DNA of 53,588 nt, taken from Chiloscyllium plagiosum (Eukaryota). The notes under the pieces are model-generated. The model made no database searches. It was not told the origin of the DNA and was given only the letters and a program-made list of their open reading frames with translations. The stretch lies in assembly GCF_004010195.1 (NCBI RefSeq), contig NC_057718.1:56747872-56801459 (forward strand), given 5' to 3'. Of the stretch, positions 9,746-35,130 are shown in pieces; the first letter of the stretch is position 1; each line of letters begins with the position of its first letter. The position numbers were made by a program, and so were the translations under genes.

Positions 9746-10599
9746 CTGCAGACACAATTTAACTGGAATTAAATTTTCGTCATAATAATAATAATATAAT
9801 ATAGTCTATACCAAATTACAGAAAATGTACATCGTATTTTGAAAGACAAGAAGAAACTTTGTACAGCGTATTGTAAAGCATTTTAAAAAAAATACTTCCA
9901 CATACAATAGCACATTAGTAGTAGTGGTAAAGATTTACATGTTTATCTCCCAAATAAAGATGATAGGAGATCTGTTGAAAAATTATCTTTGTTAATAGCT
10001 GCAAGACATGTAGTTGCATTCCCTAAGCCCAAGCTTCTTTCTATATCCTTCTACATGGAAATCTCTTGTTTGAAAGGGAAATAGATGGGAATGGAGACTG
10101 CAGGTGCAATCCATAGTGTAAGTACCAATATCTCTTGACTGCAGCTTTTCAAAATAGCTACAAGAGATGATTATCTTTTTATAACAATGTTTGCTCTCAA
10201 AACATTACATCAGGATTTTTCTATTAGCTACATCACTGGAATCAACAATCCTACAATTGACATTTTAGCTCTTCCTGAAACTACTGAGTTCTAATATGGA
10301 AAATTTCAAAGATGATTAACTTGTATTTGTAATATAATACTTCAATATTGAATTCTCCAACTAGTTTTGCAAGTGATTACAAAACTCAGTTATCAATCCA
10401 AAAAGAGCGTGTTCTTGTTATTAAAAGCAAGCAGAGAAACTGAGAAACACTTTAAGATGAATTTCACACAGAAAAATAAACTTGAGTTCTTGTTAACACA
10501 TAACATCATTAATACCTCTCTGGAAGTAGCTCTTTCTTTCCCCTTCTTCCTTCCATGATGGTAGGAGCCTTCACTTGCATAGCAATAATTTGTTCATCG

Positions 10600-11792
10600 A
10601 TGGTCAGTTTGGATTCTGCCAGGGTCACTCAGTTTGTGGCTTCATTACAGTATTAGTTCAAATATAGACAAAAGAGCTGAACTCCCGTGGGAAGTTAGAG
10701 TGACTACTCTTGACAACAAGGCAGGTTTTAACCAACTGTGGCATCAAGGAGCCTTAGCAGGGAAGGAATCAACGTGAATAAAGGAGAAAATGCTCCCCTG
10801 GTTGGAATCATACCTTGCACAAATGAAGATGATTTCAGGAGTTCGTCAGGATAGTATCCTCAGACCAACCATCTTCAGTTGCTCAATCCTTCAGAGTCCT
10901 TCCTTCACAGAGTCAGAGTGGGAATGTTCAATGATGGGTATGCAATGTTCATGACATGTTCATTCACAACTCCTCAGATATTGAAGCACTCATGTCCAAA
11001 TGCAACAAGAGCTGGGCAGTAACCAGGTATGGGTTGACAAGCTGCAATTAACATTTGCACCACACGGTGTCAGGCATTGATCACATCCAACGAGAATCTA
11101 ACCAATGCCCCTTGACATTCAATGGCATTATCATCCTCAAGTCCCCCATTATCAACATCCTGGAGTTACCACTGACTGGAAACTGAACCAGAATGCCATG
11201 TTAACACTATGGCTACAAAATCAGAGGCAATGTCTTGACTCCCCAAAGCCTGCCCACCATCTACAAAGCACAAGGGAGGAATGTGATAGAATACTCTCAC
11301 TTGCCTGGATAAGTGCAGCTCTAACAACATTCAAGACACTTGACACCATTCAGGACCAAGCATCAGGCTTCTTGACTAGCACCACATCCACAAACATTCG
11401 TTCCTCTACCACTGACACACAGTAGCAGCAGTAAGTACCATCCTGAAGATGCATTTCAAAGTTTACAAGGCTACTTAGACAACCCCTTACAAACTCTCAA
11501 CCACTATAATTTAAAAAGACAAGGGCAGCAAACACATGGGAACACCAACAACTGCAGATTTTCCCCTCTAAGCCAATCACTATCCTGATTTGGAAATATA
11601 TTGCTGTTCCTTCAGTGTCACTGGGTAAAAATCCTGGAACACGCTCCCTGATAGCATCCGAGTATACATACGTGAAATAGGCTGCAGCAGTTCATGAAGG
11701 CAGCTCACCATCACCTTTCCAATGGCAACTAAGGATATGCAATAAAAGCTGGTCCAGCCATCAAACTCAATCCCATGAATAAATAAATAAAA
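10600..11792 (+). mobile_element. 5'-truncated LINE of a second family (CR1/L2 group), with 3' UTR
   Basis: RT remnants (DNKAGFNQLWHQG, GVRQDSILRPTIF), C-terminal LAWISAALTTFKTLDTIQDQA, and a tail ending CCCATGAATAAATAAATAAA. The same family recurs at 37200-38090 (-) and 41660-42250 (+). Confidence 0.7.
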
Positions 11793-12404
11793 GGATGAAA
11801 ATTCCATTGACAAGCCCAATATTTGTAGCCCCTCCCTAACTGTCCTTTAATTGAATAGCTCATTAAGCCATTTCAGAGGGCAGTTAATAAGCAACCATAT
11901 TGCTGGGGGACTGAAATCACATGTGGGCCATTCCAGGTAAAGGACAGATTTCCCTTCGAACCAGTTAGTTTTTAAGACAACTGAGGCTTGTTTAAAGGTT
12001 ACCATTACTAAGACTTGGGGCAAAATTTTCCCAGTCCTATAATGGCATGGGTAAGGCAGAAAAGTTGTGAATATACAGCAAGAACGAATTAAATCAGATT
12101 CCCCATCAATAAAACATTTTCTGATGTTTCCCTTGCCTTTCCCTCCCTTTAAGTAGAGACTTCTGAATCACACTGATGAATGGCAACTATTTTATTTCCA
12201 TGCGCTTCAATTCTATTAATGGCTAATTTCACCTCACTTTTATGCAGCTCTCCATCATCCCCCTCTCCTCTGAGAAAATGGATGGCATCAACTTCTAACA
12301 TGAAAGTCAGAGCAGTTACCTGGCTTTACAGTTCACTGCTAGCTTCTCGTGCCTTCAGCTCCAATATCACATAATTTTCCTGCATGCTCCATGGATCTCT
12401 TCCC

Positions 12405-12526
12405 TGAAATAACTCCAAGGGGCTGGTACCGCATCACCAAGTCACACATGGAGAGTTCTTGACACTGATCCAGTTCCTTCAGAGACAGTTCTCAGAATGG
12501 ACAGGACCGCTGACATTCCTGTTCTT
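12405..12526 (-). repeat. Distal half of the Gypsy 3' LTR (split by insertions)
   Basis: Ends ...GTTATTTCA on the minus strand. Shares the 14-bp junction ACATTCCTG(T/C)TCTT with the proximal LTR half at 16279-16394; joined they give a TG...CA unit of about 220 bp. Confidence 0.65.
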
Positions 12527-12762
12527 TTCTTCCTGGGTGAGGCCCAGGCTGCAGCACTAGAGGCAGGCCCAGGACTCAGAGCTCTCACCTCTTGCCTCCT
12601 CCTCTTCTTCTTCCCCTCAGAACACTGGATGTGGGCAGCTGGTCCAGAGTCAGTCCCCTCCCTCTGACACAATCAAGAGGAGAGGTCCTTCACTCTACAC
12701 TGATCCAGCTCCCTCAAGAGCCAGCTCTCAGAGTGAACGGGATCTCTGACACTTCTATTCTT

Positions 12763-15700
12763 TTTTTCTTATTACCCCCACACTACCGCATCACTGCGGT
12801 AGTGCTTATTTTTTCCCCAACACCCATGTTGTGTGTGTGCAGGTATGACACACAGTGAAAGACACAAGGTGCACAAATCTTTATTCAAATTTCCACCATC
12901 AGGAAGAAACGAAACACCCAAGTGGCCTGTGACAAGCAGTACCCTTCACATCAAAGGGCAATGCTGTGTGATCAAACAGAGAAGGGGAGGGCAAGGAATA
13001 AATCAAAATAGAGTTGGAGAGGGAAATTTTACACTCCACTCCCTGCGGCGCCCACCTCTCCCTGAACAACTCCAGGATGTTGGTGGATACCGCATGCTCC
13101 TTTTACAGAGACACCCGGGCTCTAATGTAACCGCAGAAGAGGGGCAGGCAGTCGGCCTTAACGACCCCCTCCACGGCCCGCTGCCCAGGAGCAGACCCAC
13201 AAGGTCTTCAGACCTGCCCTCCCCCTCCGTACTGGGTGCCCAAAGATCAGGAGCGTGCGACTGAAGTGCAACCAAAAGCAGAGGAGGAGGTTTTTGAGAA
13301 AATCAAAAAGGGAGTGCAAACGCCCACACCCAATATATACATGGTCCACAGCACCACAGAACAAGCAGTTGGGTTGGGAGTCCATGACCCACCGCAATCT
13401 GCGATTGCAGGGGACCGCTGCGTGCAGCACCCTCCACCCCAGATCCCCAAGAGAAAGGGGGAGGACTCCGTGTAGAGAGCCCTCCACTGGGGATCCCCAC
13501 AGCCCAGTGGCAAATGGGCACGCCAAGGCGTGTCCGGACGGTGGAGGTGGATGGTGTGCAGCAGCAGTCGATACAGAGCCCGCCTTCTTACTTCCTTAAA
13601 AGGGACAAATCTAAAATTCCGGAGGCGGCTCAGGTTGTGGGGCACAGGCTCCCGCGGGAAGTACGGGACCTTGGGGCCAATGTGAAATTCCATCTGGGGA
13701 GGGGTAAGCGCAGACAGGATTCCACCACACCACCAATGGGCGGCACGGTGACACAGTGGTTAGCAGTGCTGCCTCACAGCGCCAGAGACCCGGGTTCAAT
13801 TCCCGCCTCAGGCGGCTGTCTGTGTGGAGTTTGCACATTCTCCCAGTGTCTGCGTGGGTTTCCTCCGGGTACTCTGGTTTCCTCCCACAGTCCAAAAATG
13901 TGCAGGTTAGGTGAATTGGCCTTGCTAAATTGCTCGTAGTCTTAGGTGAAGGGGTAAATGTAGGGGAATGGGTCTGGGTGGGTTGCGGGTCGGTGTGGAC
14001 TTGTTGGGCATAAGGTCCTGTTTCCACACTGTTAGTAATCTAATCTAAACCTGAGCATCCTCCAACAGGTGTACTACGTCGGGTCCGAGAACCACCGTTT
14101 TAAGGTGTCGGATAGCGAGCAGGGCAGGGGTAGACATCCGGTACGTGGCCACCGCCATGTCCTGCGGCAGCGACCAGCCCAGGCCCCCACCACCCAGCTT
14201 GTCCCCGATCCTGGTCACCCTCGCCGCCACAGCCCTCCCCTCCGACAGCCACCCGAACCCGCGAGGACGGAGGTGCAGATTCCTGGGCAACGGCTCCCTG
14301 ACAATGCCACTTCTGCCGGAGGGTAGGCGCAACGCGATTTGACCATGTTCCAGACAGTGATCAGGTCCTGGTAAAAGACAGGCAGCGTCTTGAGGGTGAC
14401 CTCAAACCGTCACGGTCAACAAACAGGAGCTGCGTGTCGTAGTTGAGGTTACGCACCTGGCGGAAAAAATACGTCACCAGGGCGCACCACCTAGGAGGAG
14501 GCTCGACACAAAGGGATCACTGCAAGGTCTGAAGGTGGAACGTTGCGACCTGGGTGCGGACGCACACCAGCGACTGACCGCCCTCCTCAATAGGGAGACT
14601 CAGAACCTGCACAGTGACCCAGTGCATCTTTTTATCCAAGAAGTCGACCAACATTCTCTGGATGTCAGCGACAAAGCCAAGAGGAGGGACCAAAGTGACC
14701 AGCCGGTACCACAGCATGGCGGCCACCAGCTGGTTTATGAGCAGCACTTGACTCCTGTAAGATAGCACTCGGAACAGTCCTGTCCAGCAGCCTAGGCGAG
14801 CCAAGACTTTGGCTTCCAGCTCCTGCCAGTTCGCCGGCCAGGATTCCTCAGCCGGGCCGAGGTAGACCCCCAGGTAGAGGAGATGGGTGGTACTCCAGCT
14901 GAACCCCAGTAACTCCTCCGGCAGACAGTCCACCCGCCACGGACCGACCAGTAGTCCGGAACATTTGGCCCAGTTGACCCTGGCAAAAGACGCTGCAGAG
15001 TACACGGCCTGGCACTTGTGCATCCTCCCCAGGTCAGCCGGGTCGGTGAAAGTAAGGAGCACATCATCGGCGTAGGCAGAGAGGACCATCCCCGTGCCCG
15101 TGCCACACAGAACCAGCCCCAATAACCTCCTCCGTAAGAGGCGCAGAAAAGGCTCCACGCACAGGGAATACAGCTGGCCGGACGGTGGACAGCTTTGACG
15201 TACCCCTCTCCCAAAGCGAAGGGGCGCTGTCAGGGACCCGTTAACTTTAATCAGACACTCTGCGGCAGCGTACAAAAGTCGGATCCGGGTGATGAACTGC
15301 GTCCCGAACCCAGATGCCCGAGCAGGTACTCATGATCGACCCTGTCGAATGTCTTCTCCTGGTTGAGAGACAGGAAGGCACTCGGCAGACCAGCCCGTTG
15401 ACAGAAATGGATCAGGTCCCGGACCAGGTGGCTGTTGTCGTGTATCCTCTGACCCGGGACTGTATAGGACTGGTCCAGGTGAATCATGTGGGCCAGCATG
15501 GAAGCCAGGCGAGAAGACAACACCCTGGCGAAGATTTTGTAATCCGTGCTGAGGAGGGAGACCGGACGCCAGTTCTTTAAGGAACGAAGGTCCCCCTTCT
15601 TTGGCAGCAGGACGATGACCGCCCTGCGCCAAGAAAGGGGCAGCAGTCCGACATTTAGACACTCCCCCAGGACCTGTGCGTAGTCGATCTCTAGGACGTC

Positions 15701-15779
15701 CCAGAACGCCCTGAAGAACTCCTCAGTCAGCCCGGGGACTTGCCCCTCGAGAGCCAGTCAAGGGCACTGGTCAGCTCTG
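12763..15779 (-). mobile_element. Tx1-clade (L1 superfamily) non-LTR retrotransposon, 5'-truncated, with frameshifts
   Basis: RT motifs KNWRPVSLLSTDY, LSLNQEKTFDRVDHEYL, GRGVRQSCPPSGQLYSLCVEPFL, VLSAYADDVLL, close to Xenopus Tx1 ORF2. C-terminal CCHC knuckle CLFCGAVDHVYIGC. 3' UTR with AATAAA, a hairpin and an A-rich tail. High GC relative to flanks. Confidence 0.9.
13739..14049 (+). mobile_element. Full-length HE1-type V-SINE nested in the Tx1 element
   Basis: tRNA head GGCGGCACGGTGACACAGTGGTTAGC...GGGTTCAATTCCC, V-domain, and CR1-like tail CCTGTTTCCACACTG...TAATCTAATCTAAA. Interrupts Tx1 ORF2. Confidence 0.9.
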
Positions 15780-15791
15780 ACATTCCTTTTC

Positions 15792-16278
15792 TTTTTTTTT
15801 CTGTTTAAACAACAAATTTATTTTCAGAAGTTTAGACAGCAGGTTCTACATAATGATATCATATGATTTGTTGCAACCGTGTATGGTAAACTGCTTCATT
15901 TATTAAACATGCCATATAGAATCTGAATAAATAATGCTACAAAGCCCAAGCTATGTACAAATATCTTGGGCAAAGTTATGTTTACAAACTTATATACAGT
16001 AAAATAAACAAACCAGCCAATGTAATTGTCCAAATTATGCAACAAAACAAAATGTCACAAGTGATCGAGTTGATGCATAGAAACAAAAATCAATGCTGTA
16101 AATAGTTCAAAAGTTTGTTTATACAACTTCAGTATCTTTTTTTAAAAAACAAATCAATTTACACTTAATGCTTAAATATATCTTCATAAAATTTGACTTT
16201 AGAAAACAAGCAAAAATTGTACAGTTTGAGATAAAAATTACAGGAATTGGTGTTTTAAAATATCACCAAATCCAGACA
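15792..16278 (-). pseudogene. Putative retrocopied mRNA 3'-UTR fragment with poly(A)
   Basis: AT-rich and non-coding. Minus-strand AATAAA (15817-15822) lies 16 nt before an A9 tail (15792-15800). Flanked by copies of the LTR target motif at 15780-15793 and 16279-16292. Parent gene not identified. Confidence 0.55.
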
Positions 16279-16394
16279 ACATTCCTGCTCTTATCTGTCA
16301 GCCAGGACTCCCTGATTGGACCAGACTAACAGCTCTAATCAGGGAACTCATATCCTATGAGGCCCACCTGGCTGACCTCGTTACAATCACTACA
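16279..16394 (-). repeat. Proximal half of the Gypsy 3' LTR
   Basis: Starts TGTAGTGATTG on the minus strand immediately after a polypurine tract GGGGGGGAGGGA (16395-16406). Contains CCAAT and the imperfect inverted repeat TCCCTGATT...AATCAGGGA. Confidence 0.8.
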
Positions 16395-18137
16395 TCCCTC
16401 CCCCCCAAGTCAGAGAACATAGGCTGTTTTTTTTTTGTAGCTCTTTCTGGTACATTTTATCACTGAGTCAGCTGCCTCCAACTCTGCTCCAGGCTATGTG
16501 TAACACAGGTAGCTTGCCTCTTGCGCCTGGAGTGTCTCAGAAGAAATTCTTGCTCCTCTTCAGGTAGCAGAGATGTTGAGGCAGTGACATCTGCCGTGTC
16601 CATTTTAAATTCAGAGGTATCTTCAAAGCTGGTCAGAAACGGAGAACCCATGGATTCGCGAACAGTCGGAAAGACTGTCGAGGAGTTGGTCACGTTTTGC
16701 TCCTGCTCGGTTTGTGAGTTTGCAGCATTCATTTGGTCCACGTGCCTGTTCAGGATCATCTCACTAACTGAATGTTATACGTCACTGGACCTGACCTCAC
16801 ATCAACCATGTAGGGACATTCCCATGGCTCCAACAAGAAACTTTGTCTCCTGAAGTAAACAGTCTCTCTTGCTTACTGAAGTCACTTCTGACATTGTATT
16901 CCTGATGCTGTTTCACCCTTCCCCCTCCAGGTCCAAGATGATCAGATTTAACCTGGTGCAGAGTCTTCTTCCCATTAGCAACTCTGCTGGAGAAATCCCT
17001 TTACATGTGTGAGAGGTTGCCCTGTAAACAAATAGGAACCAGGACAATTTGGTGTCTCGTGAAGCTGCATGTGGTTTCTTTAAGCCTGCCTTCAAAGTTT
17101 GGACTGTTGGATGATATGGAGCTGTCCCTGTATGACGGATACCATTGGACTCTACGAAAAACTCAAATTTCCTGCTGATAAATGACAGTCCGTTATCTGT
17201 GACCAATACTTCTGAGAGTCTGTGTATTGCGAAAAATGCATACAGTTTTACAATCATCATCCCCATGTTTGACAACTGACCTCTCTGCATATCCAAACAA
17301 TTTGAGTGGGCATCCACAATGACTAAGAACATTGAGCCCATGAAAGGACCTGCATAGTTGATGTGCAACTGAGTCCAGGGTTTACCTGGTCATTCCCATG
17401 AATGTAGGGGAGCTGCTGATGCTAGTTTTTGTCCTAGTTGGTTCTGTACTCTAGGCAGCGACTCACCAACACAGTTATGTCTGTATTCAATCTTGATCAT
17501 AAGACATAACTCCTCAACATCTTCATTTTGGAAACCCTAGTAGGGTTCAGCCAGTATCTGGTTATGACTTTTACTTGAGACAATCACTTTTGCTCCCCAT
17601 AACAATATGCTGTCCTCTATTAGTCTCGTAGATTCAAAAAGGTTTCAATTCTGGTTGTGATGGCCCTTTGGATTCTCCGTTCATCGTCAGTTGTTTCAGT
17701 TTTACAGAGGCCAAATCTTTCTGCGTCTAAAGTCTGATATTGTCAGTTGTAATTGGAAGCGTGTCCTGAAAATTTAAAACCATTACTATCTCTTCCAGAG
17801 GCGGTACCACAGTGGTGTATCAGTCAGCGGAAGACAGCTCAATGTACCTGCATGTGTTATTTGGCCTCCGGATGGTGTTCCAACTTGTAATTAAATGCAG
17901 TATTAGAGCCCACTGCTGAATTCAGCCTGAAGCTATGGGCAGCACTGTTTTGTCCTATAAGTACACCGAGCAGAGTTCTGTGGTCCGTTATTACTACAAA
18001 TTTGTGTCCGTAAAGGTATCAGTGGAACTTCCTGACTCCAAATATGATTGCCAAACCTTCTTTTCTGTCTGGGCTTATTTATGCTCTGCATCAGCCAAAG
18101 TCCTGGATGCATACGCTACTGGATGTTCCTCTCCATT

Positions 18138-18318
18138 ATCAAATAGTGTGTCACTGGAAAAGCACAGCAGGTCAGGCAGCATCCAAGTAGAAGGAATTCC
18201 TGATGAAGGGCTTATGCCTGAAATGTCAACTCTCCTGCTCCTCAGATGCTGCCTGACCTGCTGTGCTTTTCCAGCGCCACACTTTTCGACTCTGATCTCC
18301 AGCCCTCGCTTCCTCTTA
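18138..18318 (+). mobile_element. Penelope-like terminal-repeat insertion with partial fold-back, inside the Gypsy
   Basis: 13-bp TSD GTTCCTCTCCATT (18125-18137 / 18319-18331), inverted arms, and degenerate hammerhead CTGATGAAGGGCTTATGCCTGAAATGTC from 18200. Confidence 0.75.
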
Positions 18319-19683
18319 GTTCCTCTCCATTGGGCTACCTATGAGCTAATATATCCCTCAGCCGTACAGCGAGGCAATGCTGGTCAATACCAGAATTCAT
18401 GAGAGATTATAATGTGCCGACACCTTAGAGGATGATAGCTGTTTTTTCATTTCCCTAAAAGCTATGGCTTGGCTATATGACTATTTCCAAGGCTGACCCT
18501 TTTTAAAGAATTGGCACAAAGTGCCAGGGTGGAGGCCAGGTTGTGTATAAACTGTCCATATTAATTCTCCGGCCCAAGGAAAGACCTAGGTTCCATTATA
18601 GACTCCGGAGTTAGGGCACCTTTAATTGCTTTTACTATCTTCAACGCATGTAAATCGGTCTTGTCGACTCTATAGCCTAAGCAGGTCACTTGGGAGTGCC
18701 TGGGCACACATTTTCCCCCTTCTAAGGTGCATACCTGCCTTGGAGAAGCATTTCAGGACTATGTCCAAGCTCTAAGTGCTCCTTATTGGTCTTCCTTGCT
18801 ATTAGTACATCTAGATAAATGGCAACCTGAAGCATGTCTTATAAAATGTTCTCCATCATCTGCTGAAAAATTGCACAAGCTGACAATCCCCAAAATGGCC
18901 CTTAAAGATATTAATTGTAGCATATTTCTGAAAATCCTCATTTAACTGGAACTGCATGTATAGATGGTTCATGTCCAGCTTCGTGAAAGGCAGCCATCCT
19001 AAAAACTTTGCATATAAATCCTCTATATGAGAGAACTGGGTATTTATCCAGCTGTGGAAAGCAGTTTACCATTTGTTTAAAATCCCCACAAAGGCCAACC
19101 AACCTGTTGGGCTTCACAATCAGCAAACTGGACAGGGTTTGATGATTCCTTCAGTTTCTAGCCTTCTGATTTCTGCCTCTATTTTTGCCCATAAGGCAAA
19201 TGGCACCAGGTGGGCATCACAGAATTGGGGAATTACTTTCTGGTCATCATGCAAGGTGGCGCTGCCTCCTTTGATAGTCTCTAGACCTTTCTGAAAAATT
19301 TTTGGATATTTAATTTGGGTTTCACTGAGGCAGCTATTTTCTAATCGAAGAATGTTGAGCCAATCTAGGTGAATTTTTCTCAATCAAATTTGCCCCATTA
19401 AGCTGGGGTCAAGCCTTTCACTCCAATCAGTGGTATTGAAAGAAATGTTTTTCAACAAGAGACCAGAACCGAAGTCATACCCTTAATCTGTAAAGGTTTT
19501 CTAGTTTAGGGTCTCAGTCTAGCAGAGGTCTTGTTTAAACTTAACAGTTGGAGTCCATAGCGAATTTTGTCAAAGACTGGTTCTGCGATCACTGAAATGG
19601 CCACAGTAGTACTGACCGCCGTTAGAACCTGGTGACCATTTCACCAGATGTTTATTTTGATTGCTTAGCAACATCCAAACAAG

Positions 19684-19821
19684 TAGGAGAAAGTGAGGGC
19701 TGCAGATGCTGGAGATCAGAGCTGAAAATGTGTTGCTGGAAAAGCGCAGGTCAGGCAGCATCCAAGGAACAGGAGAATCGACATTTCGGGCATAAGCCTT
19801 TTCCAGCAACACATTTTCAGC
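19684..19821 (-). mobile_element. Penelope-like terminal-repeat insertion with short fold-back, inside the Gypsy
   Basis: 15-bp TSD CAACATCCAAA(C/T)AAG (19669-19683 / 19822-19836). GCTGAAAATGTGTTGCTGGAAAAG is inverted at the right end. Confidence 0.75.
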
Positions 19822-20920
19822 CAACATCCAAATAAGAACCAATTTTACAGTTCCAAACCATATGTAGGTGAATTTTCCAGGTTATGCACTCGCCTGGATA
19901 CCCTCTGGTATCCAGGAGAGTGCATACGTTCACTTACCTAACTGAGATCTAGTTCGACTCTTTTGCTGTCTCGAGTCTGCATACTGGCAGCAAATACAAT
20001 GGCTTGCCAGACCAGATCTTGAAGAAACTTATAACCGTTTGGCCGAGGTTTGGCTTTGTTTTTGGATTTTGTTGTGGGCTGACCGAGAGTCTCTCTGTTC
20101 AGGCTATGTCCTGAGTGAGGCTATGCAATTGCCTTCACTCAAGTGGTATTCCCAAGCTCAGTTGGACTGGTGAGGGTATTCACTTCTATTGGAATACCCT
20201 GCAACTTATATTTTTCATTTGCTGTATTTTCCAATAATAACGCCAGTTATAGTACCTGTTTGAAGTCCAGTTGAACTTCAGCTAATAGGCATTTTTGCAT
20301 GGTTATCTCAATAATCTCAAATACCAAACAGACTCTCAGCATATCAGGATTAAACTGAGGTCACAAGCCTCTTTCAAAATAAGAGTAGCATCTGATACTG
20401 CATTGAGGAGAGAGTTTCACACGTTACCACCAGTTTGTCTGTTTTCAATGGGAGGGCAGTGAATTGCTCTAGTGGGTAAAGAAATGTGGTAAGCCATGAG
20501 CTGAAGGGTAAATTTGGGGAGATTTACAATCAAGTGAAAAGGTTGGATAGGAACTTGGAGATCCTGAAAGCTGATGGGATTTATGAGGACAACAACGTTA
20601 AATTGAAGATGGAGACTGGGAAGGTAAACTTGACAATTAGGTTAAGCCTATAACTCTCTCTCAATAGTACAAATCAGGCAGCATGCCAGCTTTGACCAAA
20701 TGCACAATAAAGAAGGAAAAATGGCTTTAAACATGTAAATTGTGGGTGAATTAAACTTTTTTGTCCCCTTCTATGAGGGTAGGGTGAACATGTTTGCAAT
20801 GTGAAGCCCTGCTAGGGCAATTCAGGCATCCACAGATTCAATGGCACTACATACCTTGCATCAAAGTGCAATTCATGTACAATTGACAAGCATCAAACAT
20901 TACAAATCTTGGTTTCAAGT

Positions 20921-21205
20921 AATTAGATTAGATTAGATTACTTACAGTGTGGAAACAGGTCTTTCAGCCCAAGCAGTCCACATCGACTCTCCGAAGAGTA
21001 ACCCTCCCAGACCCATTTCCCTCTAATGCACCTAACCTGCACATCTTTGGACTGTGGGAGGAAATTGGAGCTCCCAGAGGAAACCCACACAGACACAGGG
21101 AGTATGTGCAAACTCCACACAGGCAGTCACCCGAGGCTGGAATCGAACCTGGGACCCTGTTGTTGTGAGGCAGCAGTGCTAACCACTGAGCCACCGTGCC
21201 ACCCC
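20921..21205 (-). mobile_element. HE1-type V-SINE
   Basis: Reverse complement of the 13.7 kb SINE, with an (ATTAG)n tail at the left end. Confidence 0.88.
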
Positions 21206-22657
21206 TAATCATGATCATTCCATGGTTTATAATAAATAAATTCTTATAACCTCTGTAAAGTTGATTTAATCACATGAAAACTTAAGCGTCACCTGTGTTT
21301 GCTAACTCAAACACATTCCATAATTATCACTGCTGTAGAATGCCTCGGAGCTACTACCTTTAAATTCAGAACTGTAGGCTTGTAAAAACATTATCTGTTA
21401 TAATGAATTTCTTGGGTGATCCCCACTCTTACCCAACATAATGAGATGTAATCCAGCTACACTTAGAATCTGTCAATATTGCTCAAGTCATTTTTCCAAA
21501 CAAAATACACCTGAATTTGGCAAAATAACTCTTGAAATTCATGCAGAGGCATGGCATTTCCCTCTTTGTGGTTGGTCTCCATGTCATAGAGTATCAGGAC
21601 CCAAGATAAAGCTTAGGAATTAAGTCACAGAAAAATGATTCTGATTCTGATATTCCCAAATTAGTATCAGGGTGCATATATCAAAATGGGTGCAGCAAGG
21701 GCAAGTGCTGTCTTCACCACTGCAGCCCCACACAGACTGCACAGGAGGTGGTAGCATGTTACTTATAAGGGCAGTGGACTCCTCCAATCTTCAATCCAGT
21801 TTATTCAGTATTTCTGATGTACCTGCCTCATGTTCCTGTGCCTGTCTGTGCATTTGCATCAAGTTATTAATGGACAACATCTTGGGATCATCATGCCTGA
21901 ACATGGCAGTCCTCTGCATGCAAATGACATGTGGAGTTCCTTCTTATTCAGTTTTACAGTTGTGTCAATTATGTAGTCACCAGATTGTTCCTCAGAGTCT
22001 AATCAAAATAGGTATCCACTGATGTGAAAGTCTCTAAGATGGTGGAGGATGTAAGTGAAAGCCTTGCCAGTGCATGCTTTGAGGGTTCAGTGACTTCTTC
22101 CTCAGGTGGAGGAGGAGCTGACGGGCTCAAGTGGTGCCCTCTTTGGAACAGAGGGCCTATGCATGCCACATAAGAGGGGTTGTTAGTTGTGCAATAGGGG
22201 TAGAAGCTTTTGCAACTTAAGAATCAGTTAACACTTGTAAGGGGAAAGCTGTGCAGCACAGCTTTGTGAAGCTTACTAATTTAGCTAAACCGTGTTAATT
22301 TTCCCAGCTAAATCCAGGATTTTCTCCTCATAGGGAGTGAGAGGGCAGATATCATCTACCCACCCAGCCACCCACCTTCAGCCTGTTCTTGCACTTCTGG
22401 CCTGATTGTGTGACTGTTTCTCTTGTAATGAGACAAAAGGAGGAGTTGAGTGAGAGCTGTAGACCATTAGCCTTAGTAATATTACTGTAAAGTGGGCAAA
22501 ATTACAATGAGTGTAAGGCAGTTGACAAAAGATGGTGGCACTTACTCACATAGAGTGCACAAGATCACTGACCTCCTCCTTCACTGTTGGATGCTTGGTT
22601 TGTTTGAAAAATGCCTCAGGCTGTTATCGGAGCACAAGTTGGCTAGGTTTGGTGGTG

Positions 22658-22761
22658 GCTATTCCTGATGAAGGGCTTTTGCCCAATACGTCGATTTTCC
22701 TGCTCCTCGGATGCTGCCTGACCTGCTGTGCTTTTCCAGCACCACTCTAATCTAAACCCTG
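22658..22761 (+). mobile_element. Penelope-like terminal-repeat fragment
   Basis: 12-bp TSD GGTTTGGTGGTG (22646-22657 / 22762-22773). CTGATGAAGGGCTTTTGCCC followed by a mutated GAAA. Confidence 0.75.
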
Positions 22762-22861
22762 GGTTTGGTGGTGTAACCACCATTAGTCGGCTGCAAGACA
22801 AAACATTGTGCTCTGCTCCACCATCCATTCACCAATACCTCAAAGCCCATGTCCTAAAAGC

Positions 22862-22991
22862 TTTGACAAAGGGTCAGTTAGACTCAAAATATCACCTCTT
22901 TTCTCTCCTTACAGATGCTGCCTGACCTGCTGAGATTTCCCAGCATTTTCTCTTTTGGTTTCAGATTCCAGCATCCGCAGTAATTTGCTTT
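22862..22991 (+). mobile_element. Penelope-like terminal-repeat fragment (related subfamily)
   Basis: 12-bp TSD TGTCCTAAAAGC (22850-22861 / 22992-23003). Shares GATGCTGCCTGACCTGCTG...CCAGCATC with the other copies. Confidence 0.7.
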
Positions 22992-23262
22992 TGTCCTAAA
23001 AGCATGCTACTAAGCATACCTTCTGGGTCACGTTCTTAGTGATAACAGCCAGACATGACAGTGTAATGGGCAGTTTCGAAAGTATCATAGAGCTATGGTT
23101 GAATATGGTGCCAGCAATGTAAATGTCACAAAGTCCCGACAACAGCTAGCTCTGCCAAACCTGCTGAATAACTGCATGAGTTGACTGAACTGGACAAATG
23201 CATAACTAATAAGCAGATGACTGCGTGAAAAGTTGAAGGCATGGCAGACTATGCTCTATGAA

Positions 23263-23656
23263 TCTTTCTTTTCCCTGGAGCATCGGAGGCTGAGGGGTGA
23301 CCTTATAGAGGTTTACAAAATTATGAGGGGTCTGGATAGGATAAATAGCCAAAGTCTTTTCCCTGGAATCGGGGAGTCCAGAACTAGAGGGCATAGGTTT
23401 AGGGTGAGAGGGGAAAGATATAAAGGACAACCTTTTCACGCAGAGAGTGGTACGTGTATGGAATGACCTGCCCGAGGATGTGGTGAAGGCTGGTACAATT
23501 GCAACATTTAAGAGGCATTCAGATGGGTATATGAATAGGAAGAGTTTGGCGGGATATTGGCCGGGTGCTGGCAGGTGGGACTAGATTGAGTTGCGATATC
23601 TGATCAGGTTGGACCGAAGGGTCTGTTTTCATACTGTCCATCTCTATGACTCTATA
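23263..23656 (+). mobile_element. CR1 (HER1-like) LINE 3' end
   Basis: FSLEHRRLRGDLIEVYKIMRGLDR...SRTRGHRFRV, ending CTCTATGACTCTAT. Confidence 0.88.
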
Positions 23657-23932
23657 CCAATTTGCTAGAAAAAAAAGGGAAGATTCAGCCACAATTTCCA
23701 ATCCAGCTTCTGAACTATTTAAACAAAAGCAGAAATAGCTGGAGAAACTCAGTAGGTATGGCATTTGTAGACAGAGAGAAACAGTGTCCTTTCTTTAGAA
23801 CGCTGAATTACTTGTCAAGTGAAATTACCAACAGGCTACCATCTCCCTGCAACAAGCACATGATAATGGACATGTTTTAAAAATAACGCTAACTGATGAA
23901 ATATAAATTCAACCACATTTTAAAAAAATGCT

Positions 23933-24246
23933 TAATTAGATTCGATTACTTACAGTGTGAAAACAGGCCCTTTGGCCCAACAAGTCCACACCTACCCTCC
24001 GAAGTGCAACCCACTCAGACCCATTCCCCTACATTTACCCCTTCACCTAACACTACGGGCAATTTAGCATGGCCAATTCACCTAACCTGCACATCTTTGG
24101 ATTGGGGGAGGAAACCGCAGCACCCGGAGGAAACCCACACAGACACGGGGAGAACGTGCAAACTCCACACAGACAGTCGCCTGAGGCTGGAATCGAACGA
24201 GTGACCCTGGTCCTGTGAGGCAGCAGTGCTAACCACTGAGCCACCA
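23933..24246 (-). mobile_element. HE1-type V-SINE
   Basis: Reverse complement of the HE1 consensus seen at 13.7 kb. Confidence 0.88.
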
Positions 24247-24593
24247 TATAATCCTTCAACAAGGACTATTTAGATAAATAAGCAATTTAATGATAGAGAT
24301 TACAAGAATGTCGAGATTTGCCACATACTTAAATCATGTTATACTACATAGTTAGATACTAATAATACTAATTATAGAATCCCTACAGTGTGGAAGCTGG
24401 CCATTTGGCTTTTCAAGTCCACACCAACCCTTCGAAAAGCATCCCACCCAGACCCACCCTTATATCCCAGCATTTATCACAGTGTGAAAAAAAGTCACCA
24501 AAACTCTACGTTCTCAACCATTATAACTGTGCCACTTTATGTTGAGTTAAAATTTAGGAGAATCTTGGACAAAGCTGCTATTTCCAATTCAAC

Positions 24594-24945
24594 CATAGAA
24601 TCACAGAATCCCTAGTGTGGAGGCAGGCCATTCGGTCCACATCCAACTCTACGAAAAGCTTCCCATCCAGATCCAGACCCCTTACCCTATCCATATAACC
24701 CTGTATTTCCCAGGGCTAACCCATCTAGTCAGCACATTTCTGGACACTAAGGGCAATTTTGCATTGCCAATGCACCTAACCTGCACAACTTTGGACTATG
24801 GGAGGAAAACTGAACACCTGGAGAATACCCCGCAGACACAAGGAGAATGTGCAAACTCGACAGACAGTCGTTAAGAATGCAATTGAACCAGGGTCCCTGG
24901 CACTGTGAGGCAGCAGTGCTAACCATTCAGCCATTGTGCCACCCC
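24594..24945 (-). mobile_element. HE1-related V-SINE (older subfamily); a tail-only fragment lies at about 24375-24465
   Basis: GCACCTAACCTGCAC...GGGAGGAAA...GAATGTGCAAACT...GCAGCAGTGCTAACCA. Confidence 0.8.
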
Positions 24946-25294
24946 ATATACGAAGAACAGGGTCCTCAGACTCAAGGAAGCAGCCAAAAGCAGAGAAAAG
25001 AGGTTTGCAGGTGGAATGGAATTGGAAAAAAAAATGGTTGGGATCAAGAATGATAAAAGAATTAATCAGTTTTTCCAAAAGGAATGGGAATTAAGTCACT
25101 TCAATATTTCCTTGCTCTATTCACTTTTTGCTCGTTTCTTCCCTTATTTACCAGAAACGTTCCTCTTGCCCTTCCTTGCTAACCCACACTCCTCCTTTCT
25201 CCAAATTATCATATCTTTACTTCATCCCCTCATCTCCTTCAGAACAAACTCCTTCTTGTCTCCTCCGGCTTTTGTCCTCTCATCTGTCAATCCA

Positions 25295-25745
25295 TCCCCA
25301 GGATTAAGAAATGTTGGATAGACTAGCTTTGTTTTCACTGGAATGCAGGAGGGTGAGGGGCAACCTGATAGAAGTTTATAAGATTGTTAATGGCATGGAT
25401 AGAGTGGAAAGTATGAGGCTTTTTTCCCCAGGGTGGAAGGATCAATTATTAGGAGACAAGTTCAAGGTACAGGGTGGAAAGTTTAGAATAGATGTTTTGA
25501 GGCAAGTTTTTCACACAAAGGGTGCTAAATACCTGGAACGTGCTGCCAGAGGAGGTGGTGGATGTAGACTCAATAGCAGCAGTTAAGAGTCAACTGGACA
25601 AATACATGAATAGAAAGAGAATAGAGGTACATGGATCCTTTAAGTGAAGACAGCTTTAGTACGAAAGGGCAAAATGTGTCAGCACAGGCTTGGAGCACCA
25701 AAGGGCCTGTTCCTGTACTGTATTGTTCTTTGCACTTTTGTATTG
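25295..25745 (+). mobile_element. CR1 LINE 3' end
   Basis: LDRLALFSLECRRVRGNLIEVYKIVNGMDRV, plus 3' UTR AAGGGCCTGTTCCTGTACTGT. Confidence 0.8.
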
Positions 25746-25772
25746 TATTGGCTGAAAATACAGCGTAAAAGA

Positions 25773-26272
25773 NNNNNNNNNNNNNNNNNNNNNNNNNNNN
25801 NNNNNNNNNNNNNNNNNNNNNNNNNNNNNNNNNNNNNNNNNNNNNNNNNNNNNNNNNNNNNNNNNNNNNNNNNNNNNNNNNNNNNNNNNNNNNNNNNNNN
25901 NNNNNNNNNNNNNNNNNNNNNNNNNNNNNNNNNNNNNNNNNNNNNNNNNNNNNNNNNNNNNNNNNNNNNNNNNNNNNNNNNNNNNNNNNNNNNNNNNNNN
26001 NNNNNNNNNNNNNNNNNNNNNNNNNNNNNNNNNNNNNNNNNNNNNNNNNNNNNNNNNNNNNNNNNNNNNNNNNNNNNNNNNNNNNNNNNNNNNNNNNNNN
26101 NNNNNNNNNNNNNNNNNNNNNNNNNNNNNNNNNNNNNNNNNNNNNNNNNNNNNNNNNNNNNNNNNNNNNNNNNNNNNNNNNNNNNNNNNNNNNNNNNNNN
26201 NNNNNNNNNNNNNNNNNNNNNNNNNNNNNNNNNNNNNNNNNNNNNNNNNNNNNNNNNNNNNNNNNNNNNNNN
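25773..26272. other. Assembly gap (500 N)
   Basis: Run of exactly 500 N, so probably a fixed-size scaffold spacer. Confidence 0.99.
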
Positions 26273-26330
26273 GTGTGTGTGTATGTGTGAGCGTATGAGA
26301 GGGGGTCTGCATGAGTGTATGTATCTGTAG

Positions 26331-26374
<44 letters not shown>

Positions 26375-27103
26375 GAGTGTCTGTGTCTGTCTGTGTAGTG
26401 CAAAAGAGTCACCTGCAGTGTCACATGAACCCAAGGTCCCGGTTGAGGCCATCCCCATGGGTACCGAACTTGGCTATCAGCCTCTGCTTGGCCACTTTTC
26501 GCCTGTCCCGAAGTCGCCTTGGAGGATGGTCACCCGAAGGTTTGAGGTCAAATGTCCTGGACCGCTGAAGTGTTCTCCGACTGGGAGGGAACACTCCTGT
26601 CAGTTGATTGTTGTGGTGTCCATTCATCCATTGCCATAGCTTCTGCTTGGTCTTGCCAATGCACCATGCCTCAGGACATCCTTGACTGCAGCATATGAGA
26701 CAAATAGATGAGGCATGATACATTGGCGAGACCAAGCAGAGGCTATGGCAATGGATGAATGGACACCGCACAACAATCAGCAGACAGGAGTGTTCTCTCC
26801 CAGTTGTAGAACACTTCAACGGTTGGGACATTCGACCTGGGACCTTCAGGTGACCGTCCTCCAAGCTGGACTTCGGCATAGGCAACAACGAAAAGTAGGC
26901 GAAAGTGAGGACTGCAGATGCTGGAGATCAGAGTCAAGATTAGAGTGGTGCTGGAAAAGCACAGCAGGTCAGGCAGCATTCAAGGAGCAGGAAAATCGAC
27001 GTTTTGATGGTCGAGCAGAGGCTGAAAGCCAAGTTCAGTACCCATGGGGATGGCCTCAACTGGGATCTTGGGTTCACGTCACAATACAGGTGACCCCATT
27101 GCA

Positions 27104-27149
<46 letters not shown>

Positions 27150-27335
27150 CCCTCTCTCATACGCTCACACATACATTCCCATACACACATGCACACACTC
27201 ACAGAGTTATACCCTTTTACTTACACACACACACACTCAGACATTCATACCCTCCCCCACACGCACACATATAGGTTTGTGGGGTGAATTTCTACTTGCA
27301 GAATTTCACTTTATTTTGGTCAAAAACTGCATGAA
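26273..27335. mobile_element. Penelope-like element 3' region (GIY-YIG endonuclease) as a large inverted duplication with (GT)n/(CA)n
   Basis: Minus arm ICLICCSQGCPEAWCIGKTKQKLWQWMNGH...AKQRLIAKFGTHGDGLNRDLGF. Plus arm YIGETKQRLWQWMNGHR...EHFN...DLQVTVLQ...AEQRLKAKFSTHGDGLNWDLGF. Symmetry centre near 26700. A different Penelope repeat is nested at about 26897-27007. Confidence 0.85.
26333..26371 (+). repeat. (GT)n microsatellite; mirror (CA)n at about 27106-27147
   Basis: Seen directly; part of the Penelope 3' region. Confidence 0.95.
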
Positions 27336-27399
27336 CCATAGGAAAACCATAGGAAAACAAAATACTATTTGATCCATCTTTTGTCATCTTTTAGTAAAA

Positions 27400-30300
27400 T
27401 AGCACCCACACCAATGTAAACAGCCAGTCTGAATAGCTTTGCATAATTCAGTGCAAGGCACTTTTGACAGTTTGTGTCCATTCAAATTGTCTGTCTTGCT
27501 TTAACAAATTTGTTGAAGCAGCCACCACAGTGCTGAAGTTCAGAACAGGCTTGTGATAAAATTCACTCATGCTAATATATCATAAATTGTCATGTATTAG
27601 ACCTGAGAAAATCCAAAATAACCCTTGCTTTTGCTTCTCCAGGTGTAACTTGAGCTTGTCCAACAGTGCGGTCCAAATAAGTATCCTTTTCATTGGCAAA
27701 TTGACTTTTTGCCAGATTTATAACCAAATTGACTCTTTGTAACTGATCAAACAGCTTAGTCAGCTTGCTGGCGCATATTTCATTCTAAAATGCATGATGC
27801 TACAACAATAAAAAAATAATATTTCTTTGGCTGAATCAGTCAACAAATTTTGATAACATCTTTTTAGCAAGTCAATTATGGATTGAATGAATAAAGCCCA
27901 ATTTTTTCAACACACTTCTCTCATCTTGGAATAGGATGACAATCCATTTTTGTTACTGCGCTGACTCATGATAATCAAAACAGAATATTTGATGATAGGT
28001 GTGACAATGACTCAATTCAGCAACACTCCATCATTCTTCTCTCACTTGAGCTGACCTGTCTGGAATGAGTCTGAGAGGGTGTTTTTCATAGCTAACGCAT
28101 CCCCTACGTTAGCATTATGAACACTAAACACTTTTTCAAGTCCACTCATACAAATTGATTTATGAGTCCATGATAGCCTTTATAACGCACTTTAAAAAGT
28201 TTGCTGAAAGATAGTATATAATGCTAACATCTTTTTAAGCATCTCTGTACAATCTCATTTCTGCAGAATCAACTTTTAAAGTTCAAATTTCTAATTCATT
28301 CTCCAATTGTTTCTATATCTTAATTTCACTGCCCATTTCTTTCACTACCATAAATACATCTTTTTTCCGATTATCCTGATTTTCATAATATCTCTTTAGT
28401 ACATTAACAGAACGCATTACACTGACAATTCCTTCTGTCTGGAATACCCACTACATAATTTACATAATTGAATTGTTCTCGATTTCATAAAATCCAGTGA
28501 CCTTTGTACTTAATGGTCCAGAGAGACAGGTAACAATATTAATACCCTGTCACCAGCAACAACATTCTGAAGATCAGCTTCTTTTATCTTTTCTAGTTTT
28601 CATTGTTGAGTACTCTTCAAATGCTTTTTGGCAACTCATATTTTGGTTAGTATCTCCCTGAAACTCAAAACATAGGCTGGAAGCATAGTCGCTGAGCTTC
28701 GATTTTTCAAATTTTCTTTTATCAGTTTCAGTGGTCCTCTCACCTCATGTCCATTCAACACTTCAGAAGGATCAAATCTTAGACACACTGAGCGCATCCC
28801 TAATGGCAAACAGTAACAAGGGAATTCCATTATCCTAATCATTAACGTATAGCTTGACAATGGGCTCTAACTGTGGTCTTCGAAGTTTGATGCCATATTG
28901 CCAATGCACCTTGAGATTGTGGGTAATAATTGCAAGATGTAAATTGCTTTATTTCCAAACCAATTATTGTTACTTTGAAAATTTGTCAGATAAAATTTGA
29001 ACTTTGATCCGATTATGTTTCTTTGAGTAATCCACACCTTCACAAAACAAATTGAACCAATGTTTCCACTACTATTTTTGCACTAATTTTTCTAATAAGA
29101 CATTGGTTCAGGAAATCAATCAGAAACATTCATTATTGTTATGATACCAATTCCCATTCCTGGATTTAGGCTGGGGTTTTACACAATCTATTAAAGCTCT
29201 CAAATGCTTATTAAAACCTGGTATCAGGTTTAAAGGAGTGAACTTAATTCATAGTTGGGTTTTCCCTACTACCTCACATGCATGGTAAAACGTTACCACA
29301 TCTTTTAAGTAATCCTGGCCAATAAAAATGTTTTCATATTTTAGCTTTGGTTTGCTTAGTAGCTAAATGACCTACTACTGCAATTTCATGAGCAACTTGT
29401 AAAATGTACTTATACATTTGGATAAAATTATCATGGATCACTGCCCATTTTGAGTTCGTCTCTATTTCCTCATTCATACTTTCTTTGTCGAGTAATAACA
29501 GTGTGGTATTAGTCCTGATTCAATTTTTGAGCAGTCTGTTTGATATAATTCTCTCAATTCAGGATTTGTTGTTGCATTATCATTCACTTTTCCGTTCATC
29601 TCCATTATTTAAATATTGAGAATTCTGATAATCAAATTTCCAAGTGATCTTTCTGATTCAAAGATTCATCTTCCTGGGTCTGAGGACTAGTCACAACGTA
29701 GTCAGGAAAAGAAATCCAGGATGTCCTCCTGTAGCTTCTCTGTTTCTTTTACCTTTATTGGTTAAACCACCACTATTGGTGACGCCAATATTTTCGAACC
29801 AGTTATTTCCCAAGATAAAATCAATCCATTTCGACAATAATTGCTCCACCATGCCAACTACAACGTCTTCATTCACTAAGTCACTTTTTAACTTAACTCT
29901 GCATGATGGCTTTGATTTATTACTTCCATGTATGTCTTCATATTTTCTCTGTCATTACTTCCTTTGGAAGACAAAATAAACATCATCAGCCAGTATCAGT
30001 AATTGATTTGCTCCAGTGTTTCACCTCCTTGGTTTATTTTCTCGAGATCGAGCATAAGATTTTACCTCTTCTTTTGAGATACAATTCAGAGTCTCCAGCA
30101 GTTTCATTCTTCTTCATCATTGATAAAAAAGTTTCTTGACTGTCTTGAGTCATTTTTCCTTCTTGGTACATTCAAAGAAAATATATTTTTGGTTTTACTA
30201 CCACTGTAGTTTTAATACTGATGCTTTCCTGATATTCCCTTTTCTGGGGATTCCTTAGACATTCCTACTACTGCAATCAGTTTAACTATCTCCCATTTAA

Positions 30301-30530
30301 CTTCCAGCATATAAATTGACTTTAGCATGTTCAAATCTTATTGCAATAGCAGCATTCCTTCACACCACCTTTTGATTCTATTCTCCATTTGTTTCTGACT
30401 CCAGTCAGGTCTCCTTCAAAGGTGTCACAGCTTTCAATCTATGGGTTTTCTAAACTAATATCAATCCAAAATCATCTTGATCCAAAAACAAGATTATAGT
30501 CTTCACTATTTATCCCACTGCCGTAAGCCA
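27400..30530 (-). mobile_element. Highly decayed Gmr1-like Gypsy LTR retrotransposon internal region (gag ... IN then RT)
   Basis: Reading the minus strand: knuckle remnant CCYCNK (~30340); IN zinc finger AHEIAVVGHLATKQTKAKI*KHFYWPGL (~29396-29310); SDQSSNF; IKQFTSCNYYPQSQGALAIWHQT; GHEVRGPLKLIKE (~28750); then RT SAVTKMDCHPIPR*EKCVEKIG (~27960-27897) and MSEFYHKPVLNFSTVVAASTNLLK (~27570-27500). Confidence 0.75.
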
Positions 30531-31356
30531 CCATAATGAAAACAATCCATGAGCTCTCTGACACATACTTAATTAGGTCACTGTTCTAGAAGGAATGTCA
30601 AACGTAGTTATTTTCCTTTTAAAAGCCCTTCACAAAAATAACACATCCATATGCCATTATTACTAAATCGAAACTCTAAAACAGTATAAATATCACACAC
30701 CTCTCATCACAATAGTCATCTAACAGACACAGCAGTTGCCTGATTACACTTCGGAAGGTCAAACAATGTTATAAGATAGTATTAAGAGAAAACATATGAA
30801 TTTCTCACTGGCAAGAATCCACAAACAATTGAATCAAATTTTAAATCAGGCAGCAGGATTTGATCAATTGGAATTGATGTCACTAAGGTACATCATGCTA
30901 AGACTAGAAGAACAAATTGAGGCAACTTGAATTAATTGTTAAATGAAAATTAAACTCCCATCAAAACTCATAGAAGCTTTAAAACAATATCAAACTTTTG
31001 AAAGATTTGCATAGGACTTTCACTGTCACAATTTCCAATTAGAGTAACCAACTTCAAATTAAAATCAGCAAACTGGTAATAAATTAATCTAGTCTAATTT
31101 ATGTCAGGCAGGCAACAATGAAGACAGCTGCTAATGCTGATGTAAAGGAGCAGATGCTGTTATTCAGAATAAAAGTGTGTTTACATATAGAAGTGATATT
31201 TATTTGACCAAAAAATCTGCACAGTAGTGAAATCTCTTAAATGTCAATATTGCTCAATGATCTTATTTTTGAGCTCTTCACAAGACAACTCATTTTTCAT
31301 ATGCTTCTGAAGTTTAAAGGAGTGAAAATATTTTTGAAAAATCAAGAATTACATAC

Positions 31357-33967: not shown

Positions 33968-35130
33968 GACATAGAAACATTGGAAATAGGAGCAGCACTA
34001 GGCCATTCAGCCCTTTGAGCCTGCTCCACCATTCAATATGATCACAGCTGATCGATCTACTCAGTACGCTCTTCCTGCTTTCTCCCATATCCTATGATCC
34101 CTTTAGCTCCAAGAACTATATCTAACTCGTTAAAAAAAATTCAGTGTCTTTTTCCTCAACAACCTTCTATGGCAGAGAATTCCACAGGCTCACCACTCTC
34201 TGAAAAAAGAAAATTCTCTTCATCTGAATGGCCTATCCTGATTCCTTAGACTTGATTCCTAGTTCTGGACTCCAGGTTATTGGAAGCATCCTTCCGCACC
34301 TGCCCTGTTCATTCCTGTTAGAATTTTATCGGCTTCTATGAGATCCTCCCCCTCACTCTTCCAAACTCTAGTGAATATGGTCCTAACTGATCCATCATAC
34401 ATCATCCTACCATTCCAGGACTCAATCTGATACATCTTCATTGCACCCCTTCTATCACCAGGCCATCCATCCTCAGATCAAGGCAAAAACTGCATAAAAG
34501 TACTCCAGGTGTGGTTTCACCAAGGTTCTGTACAATTGCAGCACGACATCCCTGCGCCTGTACTTGAATCCTCTCACTATGAAGGCCAACATACCATTTG
34601 CCTTCTTCACCACCTGCAAGTTTACTTTCAACAACCTCTGGATGTAGGTTTGCTTGCTGAGCTGGAAGGTTCATTTTCAGAAGTTTCGTCACCATACTAA
34701 GTAACATCTTCAGTGAGCCGCCGAACGAAGCACTGCTGATGATTCCTGCGTTCTATTTATAGGTTTGGGAAACACCAGCAGTGCTTCTTCCGGAGGCTCA
34801 CTGAAGATGCTACCTAGTATGGTGATGAAATGTCTGAAAATGAACCTTCCAGCTCAGCAAGCAAATCTACATCCAGAACCTCAACCTGAGTTACAAATCT
34901 ACTCAAACCTCGCTTTCAACCTCTCAATTACTAACATTCTACTTCATTTGTCCTGCATTTGCCCACTCACTCAATTTGTCTAAAACACAGTGAAGCATTT
35001 TAACATCCTCCTCACAGTGCATCCTCTCACCCAGCTTTGTGTCATCTGCAAATTTGAATATAGTACATTTAGTTCCCTCATCTAAATAATTCAAAATGTG
35101 TTGTGAATTGCTGGCATCAGGCACTGATGC
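33968..35130 (-). mobile_element. CR1 LINE RT/3' fragment, interrupted by a Penelope fold-back
   Basis: NYLDEGTKCTIFKFADDTKLG (ORF 34939-35124); CR1 3' UTR at the left end. Confidence 0.8.
34633..34912. mobile_element. Penelope-like fold-back insertion (distinct family) with hammerhead cores
   Basis: Inverted arms 34637-34738 / 34776-34877. CTGAAGA-TGCTACC TAGTAT GGTGAT-GAAA-TGTC at 34801-34834 with a mirror copy at 34680-34713. Possible 8-bp TSD CTTTCAAC. Confidence 0.7.

Follow-up and report, generated by a model that had tools for sequence, protein, structure and literature searches.

A probable retrocopy of a host transcript end in the LTR target of a Tx1 retrotransposon within a shark girdin intron

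How does an AT-rich segment of 478 nt come to lie at the target site of a Tx1 retrotransposon, inside the LTR of another element and inside a gene? The question was raised by a 53,588-nt stretch of the Chiloscyllium plagiosum genome, referred to here as the window (NC_057718.1, positions 56,747,872 to 56,801,459 of the forward strand). Five minus-strand exons in the window belong to girdin (CCDC88A) of this species, four of the five at 100% by tblastn. The segment lies in sense orientation in a 21.6-kb girdin intron (9750..31350, minus strand; GT donor, AG acceptor), bordered by the exons that encode residues 1111-1204 and 1203-1252 in the shark protein. An assembly gap (a run of N at ~25770-26285) in the same intron could conceal an exon or an insert. 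A sequence-only reading of the window had proposed that the segment is the end of a cellular transcript that was mobilized by the Tx1 enzyme. We consider it likely that the segment is a processed-pseudogene fragment, derived from the 3' end of a polyadenylated, low-copy RNA of the host and moved in trans by a Tx1 ORF2 protein.

The LTR around the segment is of the Gypsy type and reads on the minus strand. Its 5' part (16279..16394) begins with TG after a purine tract (16395-16406), its 3' part (12405..12526) ends with CA, and an integrase piece is found at 16916-17389, in the same intron. By the purine tract and the integrase piece, it belongs to a decayed Gypsy element, as its 3' LTR, and is not a solo LTR. 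It is interrupted by inserts that total ~3.75 kb and all read on the minus strand. Among these is a 5'-truncated, decayed LINE (12763..15779) that retains ORF2 from about residue 453 of Xenopus Tx1 ORF2, a 3' UTR and a short A tail. It contains RVT_1 matches and frame breaks. A 270-aa piece of it showed 56% identity over 99% to the Xenopus laevis Tx1 149-kDa protein (E 1e-85), the named protein matches of this piece were Tx1/YTX2, and the element is assigned to the Tx1 clade by its closest reverse transcriptase. A SINE of the window's commonest family, which we take to be HE1-like, is nested in ORF2 on the plus strand at ~13740-14040. In its surroundings, the ORF2 homology lacks ~285 codons, either lost or not aligned (the tblastn gap runs from residue 917 to residue 1028). 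Elsewhere in the window, near-perfect inverted repeats with short spacers (44564-44979, 34637-34877, 47493-47626 and 26612-26770) are made up of a single repeat family, with arms of up to 126 nt at 94% that look like Penelope-type inverted ends.

Four copies of a 14-bp target motif, all in one register within this one LTR and all on the minus strand, border the inserts. T1 (16279..16292) stands directly after the TATA-like motif of the LTR and forms the 5' half of the target-site duplication of our segment. T2 (15780..15793), which matches T1 at 12/14 and T4 at 13/14, is both the 3' half of that duplication and the 5' flank of the Tx1 LINE. T3 (12749..12762) follows the Tx1 A tail and is the most divergent copy, at 10-11/14. 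T4 (12513..12526), at 13/14 to T1 and to T2, leads into the 3' part of the host LTR. In the whole window, only T2 and T4 match T1 at 12/14 or better, and 11/14 is reached at 14 other places. The likeness of T1 and T2 upholds the earlier description of a 14-bp duplication at the ends of the segment. Tx1 ORF2 homology begins directly after T2 in the tblastn map, with a 5' boundary blurred by up to 5 letters shared with the target. The segment and the Tx1 LINE are therefore head-to-tail at the same site, in the same orientation and in the same 14-bp duplication register. Other LTR copies were visible in two public DNA runs, in which 50 and 55 contigs left the window at 16292 without the insert, continuing with letters that resemble those behind T3 and T4, and 68 and 70 contigs left it beyond 16394.

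A point against the account given below is that T3 diverges more than T1, T2 and T4, so that the insertion stack beneath the segment is only partly explained. On the minus strand, 12527-12762 holds, after the Tx1 tail, T3, ~70 bp of LTR sequence with only ~80% similarity to the 3' part of the host LTR itself, and ~150 bp of GA-rich sequence that reaches T4 without a clear A tail. This stretch may be an older insertion, or else Tx1 may have brought it along as a 3' transduction from the LTR of a donor site. A 50-codon open frame at 12523-12672 was considered as a second host passenger and rejected, since no protein was found at E ≤10 among 32 candidates, which is a weak test.

The segment itself (15801..16278, minus strand) resembles a 3' UTR. 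The G+C content of 15801-16279 is 27.6%, and U makes up 198 of the 479 letters on the minus strand (41%). When the window was divided into 480-base bins, the bin with the segment was the only one of 109 gap-free bins at or below 30% G+C and the only one with two Pumilio-type octamers on one strand. These octamers, TGTATATA (15991..15998, minus) and TGTACATA (15952..15959, minus), match the consensus of what we presume to be Pumilio elements, and no other letter was seen at either one in any of four sequencing runs. At least two such octamers occurred in 18 of 5000 dinucleotide shuffles of the segment, and at least 9 UGUA, the number it contains, in 70 of 5000, for motifs that were picked after the fact. 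A distal AATAAA (15817..15822, minus) is separated from 15801 by 15 letters, and a proximal one lies at 15899..15904 (minus). Thus, the AATAAA, the octamers and the AT and U richness described from sequence are all in place. The A tail described with them is present, but short: the copied remnant is 7 A (15794..15800, minus) plus 2 A common to the target copy, giving 7-9 A from 15792/4 to 15800. The copy holds no coding sequence or spliced junction. Rfam gave no match within the segment and one chance match outside it over 12300-16600, no Tx1 protein similarity below E 1 was found inside it, and no second copy was found in the window. Folding of the whole segment indicated no unusual structure (z -0.72). 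Complementary 7-mers flank the 3' octamer in a local hairpin (15945-15973, minus) that is predicted in both the minimum-energy and the centroid folds.

Public sequencing runs were then used to ask how many copies of this sequence exist and whether it is transcribed. Between 55 and 98% of the segment's words were present in 20 of the 24 listed runs (10 studies, three organism labels); the share expected from the parent's differences is 0.62-0.67. Four of the 24 runs were mapped onto 15600-16450: DNA runs X2 (organism A) and X6 (organism B), and RNA runs X19 and X23. X23 carries the same species label as the window and is a poly(A) single-cell run, of which ~2% was read, giving 205 reads over the stretch. 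In X2 and X6, a single contig each covered the segment, at a flat depth of 3.6 and 17.8; depth over the Tx1 and LTR on either side rose to 10^3-10^5. The sequence is low-copy, a term used in place of "exactly one" or "exactly two" because near-identical copies can merge into one contig. A high-copy repeat with no single parent, the finding that would have spoken against a transcript origin, was not what these contigs showed. A SINE or a non-autonomous LINE was also considered and rejected, given the low copy number, the lack of a 3' tail in common with Tx1 and the lack of a second copy in the window.

The RNA reads revealed a well-expressed transcript that matches 15801-16275 and extends beyond it. 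In X23, first mates over 15774-16266 were all on the plus strand; this orientation and the poly(T) ends together assign the RNA to the minus strand. Read depth fell from ~72 near the 3' end to ~9 at the 5' end. Poly(T) loose ends ran past the window's T run at 15801/15802 in 54 reads, marking the distal AATAAA as the parent's main poly(A) signal. Five further reads had such ends at 15884, 14 letters downstream of the proximal AATAAA, which is the parent's minor signal, and four ended at an internal A run (16137). A T was already present at 15801 in 38 of 58 reads. Parent cleavage thus falls mostly one base earlier, and the copy matches a minor position. At the other end, six reads continued past 16275 with one non-window sequence, the same 30 letters of which occur in an 887-nt contig of organism C; these 30 letters are what is visible of the upstream parent sequence. 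The 5' junction of the copy is placed at 16278 with one further substitution at 16276, or else at 16275 with 3 extra letters.

DNA contigs agreed with the position of the 3' end. Contigs from X2 and X6, as well as from RNA run X19, ceased to match exactly at 15801 and extended 1025, 456 and 115 letters further, respectively. The direction of minus-strand contig records, which count from the high coordinate, was inferred from two control records. Since a templated A tract would have lengthened the match, the stop at 15801 shows that the parent DNA has no A tail of its own. Together, the poly(T)-ended reads, the upstream continuation and the stop at 15801 point to a longer polyadenylated transcript that was copied from its tail for 478 nt. 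The proposal that the segment is a 5'-truncated processed transcript end is borne out in this respect: the parent's cleavage coincides with 15801/15802, the sequence is low-copy, and the transcript runs beyond the copy's 5' end.

The parent RNA is probably an mRNA 3' UTR. Instead, it could be a long non-coding RNA, or it could stem from a low-copy retroelement which travels with Tx1 as a passenger and whose 3' end was copied. Such a source would agree with the lack of visible coding sequence and the mere 30 letters of upstream sequence, and the close agreement of three related species, at 1-4 differences in 475, tells little about function. We consider it quite improbable given the one contig per DNA run, the wide presence of the sequence in small, transcriptome-sized assemblies, the use of both AATAAA, and the absence of an Rfam match or of a Tx1 protein match below E 1 in the segment.

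A host transcript end can also be copied by the machinery of an LTR element. In this case, the Gypsy reverse transcriptase would have switched template to a host RNA and back. The copy is indeed flanked by LTR sequence, there is a 4-letter similarity at the 5' junction, and this route is documented in fish, where it accounts for five of seven zebrafish cases (PMC5131818). In that paper, captures of this kind take the place of internal sequence of the element and have neither an A tail nor a duplication. At the present locus, no LTR sequence was lost, the A tail stands at a poly(A) site, and there is a 14-bp duplication, making template switching extremely unlikely. The locus instead carries the hallmarks of a retrocopy made by target-primed reverse transcription: a non-templated A tail at the parent's poly(A) site, a 14-bp target-site duplication (12/14), 5' truncation and a low-copy parent.

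Copy and parent can be told apart by sequence. The X23 transcript differs from the window at eight positions (15861, 15873, 16144, 16154, 16188, 16206, 16228 and 16230), and seven of these eight differences are also found in organisms B and C. Among three close species, the parent sequence varies by only 1-4 differences in 475. The simplest reading of the eight differences is that the retrocopy would have decayed by ~1.7% from its parent. At 15861 and 15873, the parent's letter was found in 75/75 and 77/77 X23 reads. In the 5' half there are five sites where the parent's letter was lacking in 1-2 of 7-12 reads; judging from the per-site counts, a single read derived from the copy would account for this, which favors the decay reading.

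Over all 475 bases, the contig from X2 agrees with the window, yet it extends beyond them into sequence that the window lacks. Two copies merged during assembly, with the better-covered one prevailing, would fit this pattern. A contig across the junction (16246-16312), free of differences, overlaps the X2 contig by 30 letters, as at a fork. The X2 contig also fits a parent that is identical to the copy in that animal. The eight differences would then be lineage differences, and the RNA sample would be a weaker test. The organism B contig (X6) has the copy's letter at 15861 and parent letters elsewhere, with no junction contig among the 8 pieces examined, and the copy's letter at 16227 is common to organism A only. 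The X6 contig ends three letters past 16275, where copy and parent would fork, which is a hint that organism B carries the insertion.

Next, the enzyme was considered. Given a retrocopy, Tx1 is very probably the enzyme that made it. The earlier claim of a transcript trans-mobilized by Tx1 thus stands for the truncated transcript end, while the part assigned to Tx1 is plausible from the shared site, register and orientation, with no shared tail. The segment showed no similarity to the Tx1 3' UTR (168 of 200 shuffles scored as well). The competing source is a non-specific L1-clade element that cut an A-rich site after the TATA-like motif of the LTR. The nick context (bottom strand TCTT/A) fits a loose L1 consensus, of which there are 22 sites per kb in the window. 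An A tail, a duplication and 5' truncation are L1 hallmarks too (PMC5131818), and only a single event is at hand. Against L1, both cuts fall in the same 14-bp register as those of the adjoining Tx1. By a hand estimate, a random retrocopy has a chance of 2-3 x 10^-4 of landing at an LTR target, based on ~1.5-2 x 10^4 LTR copies, a figure that is a ratio of summed depths and no true copy number, against ~7 x 10^7 loose L1-type sites in ~3 Gb. As a genome holds thousands of retrocopies, a single chance hit is possible somewhere; within the 178 windows surveyed, it is unlikely. For these reasons, an L1-clade origin of the retrocopy is unlikely, and Tx1 is the enzyme considered below.

The order of events would be as follows. 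As the RNA reads indicate, the parent RNA was cleaved and polyadenylated at a position matching 15801/15802. The ORF2 protein of an LTR-targeting Tx1 family would have bound this RNA in trans via its poly(A) tail, a role assigned to the tail because the RNA shares no 3' sequence with Tx1. From the anatomy of the site, the endonuclease would have nicked the bottom strand where the 14-bp target begins, after the TATA-like motif of the LTR. The T-rich 3' end at the nick would then have primed on the A tail in target-primed reverse transcription. Synthesis halted after ~478 nt, before the rest of the transcript was copied, and a second cut 14 bp away duplicated the target. Presumably Tx1 was already present in the LTR and the event struck the target copy furthest upstream, which would make the retrocopy the latest piece of the stack. 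Since then, ~8 changes seem to have accumulated in the retrocopy, with no sign of use.

The sequence-only reading had also suggested that the copy could serve as an intronic polyadenylation site of CCDC88A. Such a site would truncate girdin after ~residue 1204. The copy does lie in sense orientation in the girdin intron, it has an intact AATAAA with 9 upstream UGUA, and the 1-2 of 7-12 reads without the parent's letter at the five 5'-half sites fit one copy-derived read. Near the 3' end, the copy's letters were found in 0/75 and 0/77 reads of the one RNA sample (~2% of the run read), which sets a 95% upper bound of ~4% of the parent level in that sample, and other tissues may differ. In addition, the region downstream of the parent's site is absent from the copy, the 60 nt that follow it are only 17% U, and the girdin intron contains 12 minus-strand AATAAA. 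Therefore, use as a polyadenylation site is very doubtful, and the suggestion was not supported by these reads. The copy looks inert and is transcribed at most within the girdin intron.

Parts of this arrangement are familiar from other animals. Tx1 families that prefer LTR retrotransposons as targets are known in crocodilians, where target specificity was defined as a preference in >20% of copies (PMC4494074). Like the shark Tx1, the crocodilian Tx1-8_Crp and Tx1-4_AMi lie inside another transposon at a repeated short target (PMC4494074). The shark target is in a Gypsy LTR beside a TATA-like motif. In Xenopus, Tx1L targets Tx1D (as cited in PMC4494074), and the shark Tx1 ORF2 is 56% identical to Xenopus Tx1. 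SINEU was assigned to Tx1-Mar by its shared target and is often found in tandem around one duplication (PMC4494074). The same paper found no LINE with the 3' end of SINEU-1 and holds that Tx1-Mar likely mobilizes SINEU (PMC4494074). SINEU resembles the shark retrocopy in being a non-autonomous RNA tied to Tx1 by a common target, but SINEU are amplified families with snRNA heads (PMC4494074), whereas the shark retrocopy is present once and stems from the end of a low-copy Pol II transcript.

The closest likeness is to the processed pseudogenes made by mammalian L1. These share with the shark copy a poly(A) remnant at the cleavage site, a target-site duplication, 5' truncation and the lack of a tail in common with the LINE (PMC5131818; PMC5470649). 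Mammalian L1 retrocopies are found at dispersed TTTT/AA sites (PMC5131818; PMC5470649), whereas the shark copy occupies the fixed target of a site-specific Tx1. It also consists of a 3' end only, and coding-sequence-based surveys would presumably miss such copies. Mammalian L1 has been called the exception that is able to move any poly(A) RNA (Kojima 2020, PMC7245038), and some LINEs are unable to move host RNAs (Casola and Betran 2017, PMC5470649). Tx1 has been placed in the L1 group (Ohshima 2012, 2013; PMC3472496, PMC3747384), and no classing of Tx1 RNA recognition was found in the available text of those two papers. In cartilaginous fishes, 14,081 retrocopies have been reported, and CR1 or Tx1 is said to sustain retroduplication outside mammals by correlation with element content (bioRxiv 10.64898/2026.06.26.734816). 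The terms "target site" and "UTR" are absent from the main text of that preprint (10.64898/2026.06.26.734816). While that study links retrocopies to Tx1 by correlation, the shark case ties one retrocopy to it by site.

LTR targeting by Tx1 and the trans-mobilization of SINEU are thus already published. The present locus adds a Tx1 target that holds the end of a host transcript; a search of mostly open literature, Repbase not included, found no host transcript in a Tx1 target. The retrocopy is well documented as a single event. The idea that these LTRs act as a germline trap for mRNA ends, as a general rule, rests on one case. The "germline" part holds for any inherited insertion and was therefore not counted as evidence.

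The locus itself appears to have no function, and its interest lies in what it may say about the enzyme. We tentatively propose, as a possibility we would not yet bet on, that the LTR-targeting Tx1 of this shark recognizes RNA by the poly(A) tail alone, like mammalian L1, while keeping a fixed DNA target. If this were true, the target in ~10^4 LTR copies would hold tens to hundreds of host transcript ends, a scaling from one case in ~9 Mb (178 windows) that applies if the windows are representative. "Relaxed" RNA recognition in the Tx1 clade becomes testable by surveying one LTR position. The insertion site serves as an enzyme signature in a field where the makers of non-mammalian retrocopies are mostly argued from correlation (10.64898/2026.06.26.734816), and, under this proposal, the element behind retrocopies outside mammals could be identified from it directly. 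If the proposal is correct, Tx1 would be an enzyme that pairs site-specific insertion with free choice of RNA cargo, and the LTR targets of the shark genome would form an address-sorted archive of germline and early-embryo transcripts.
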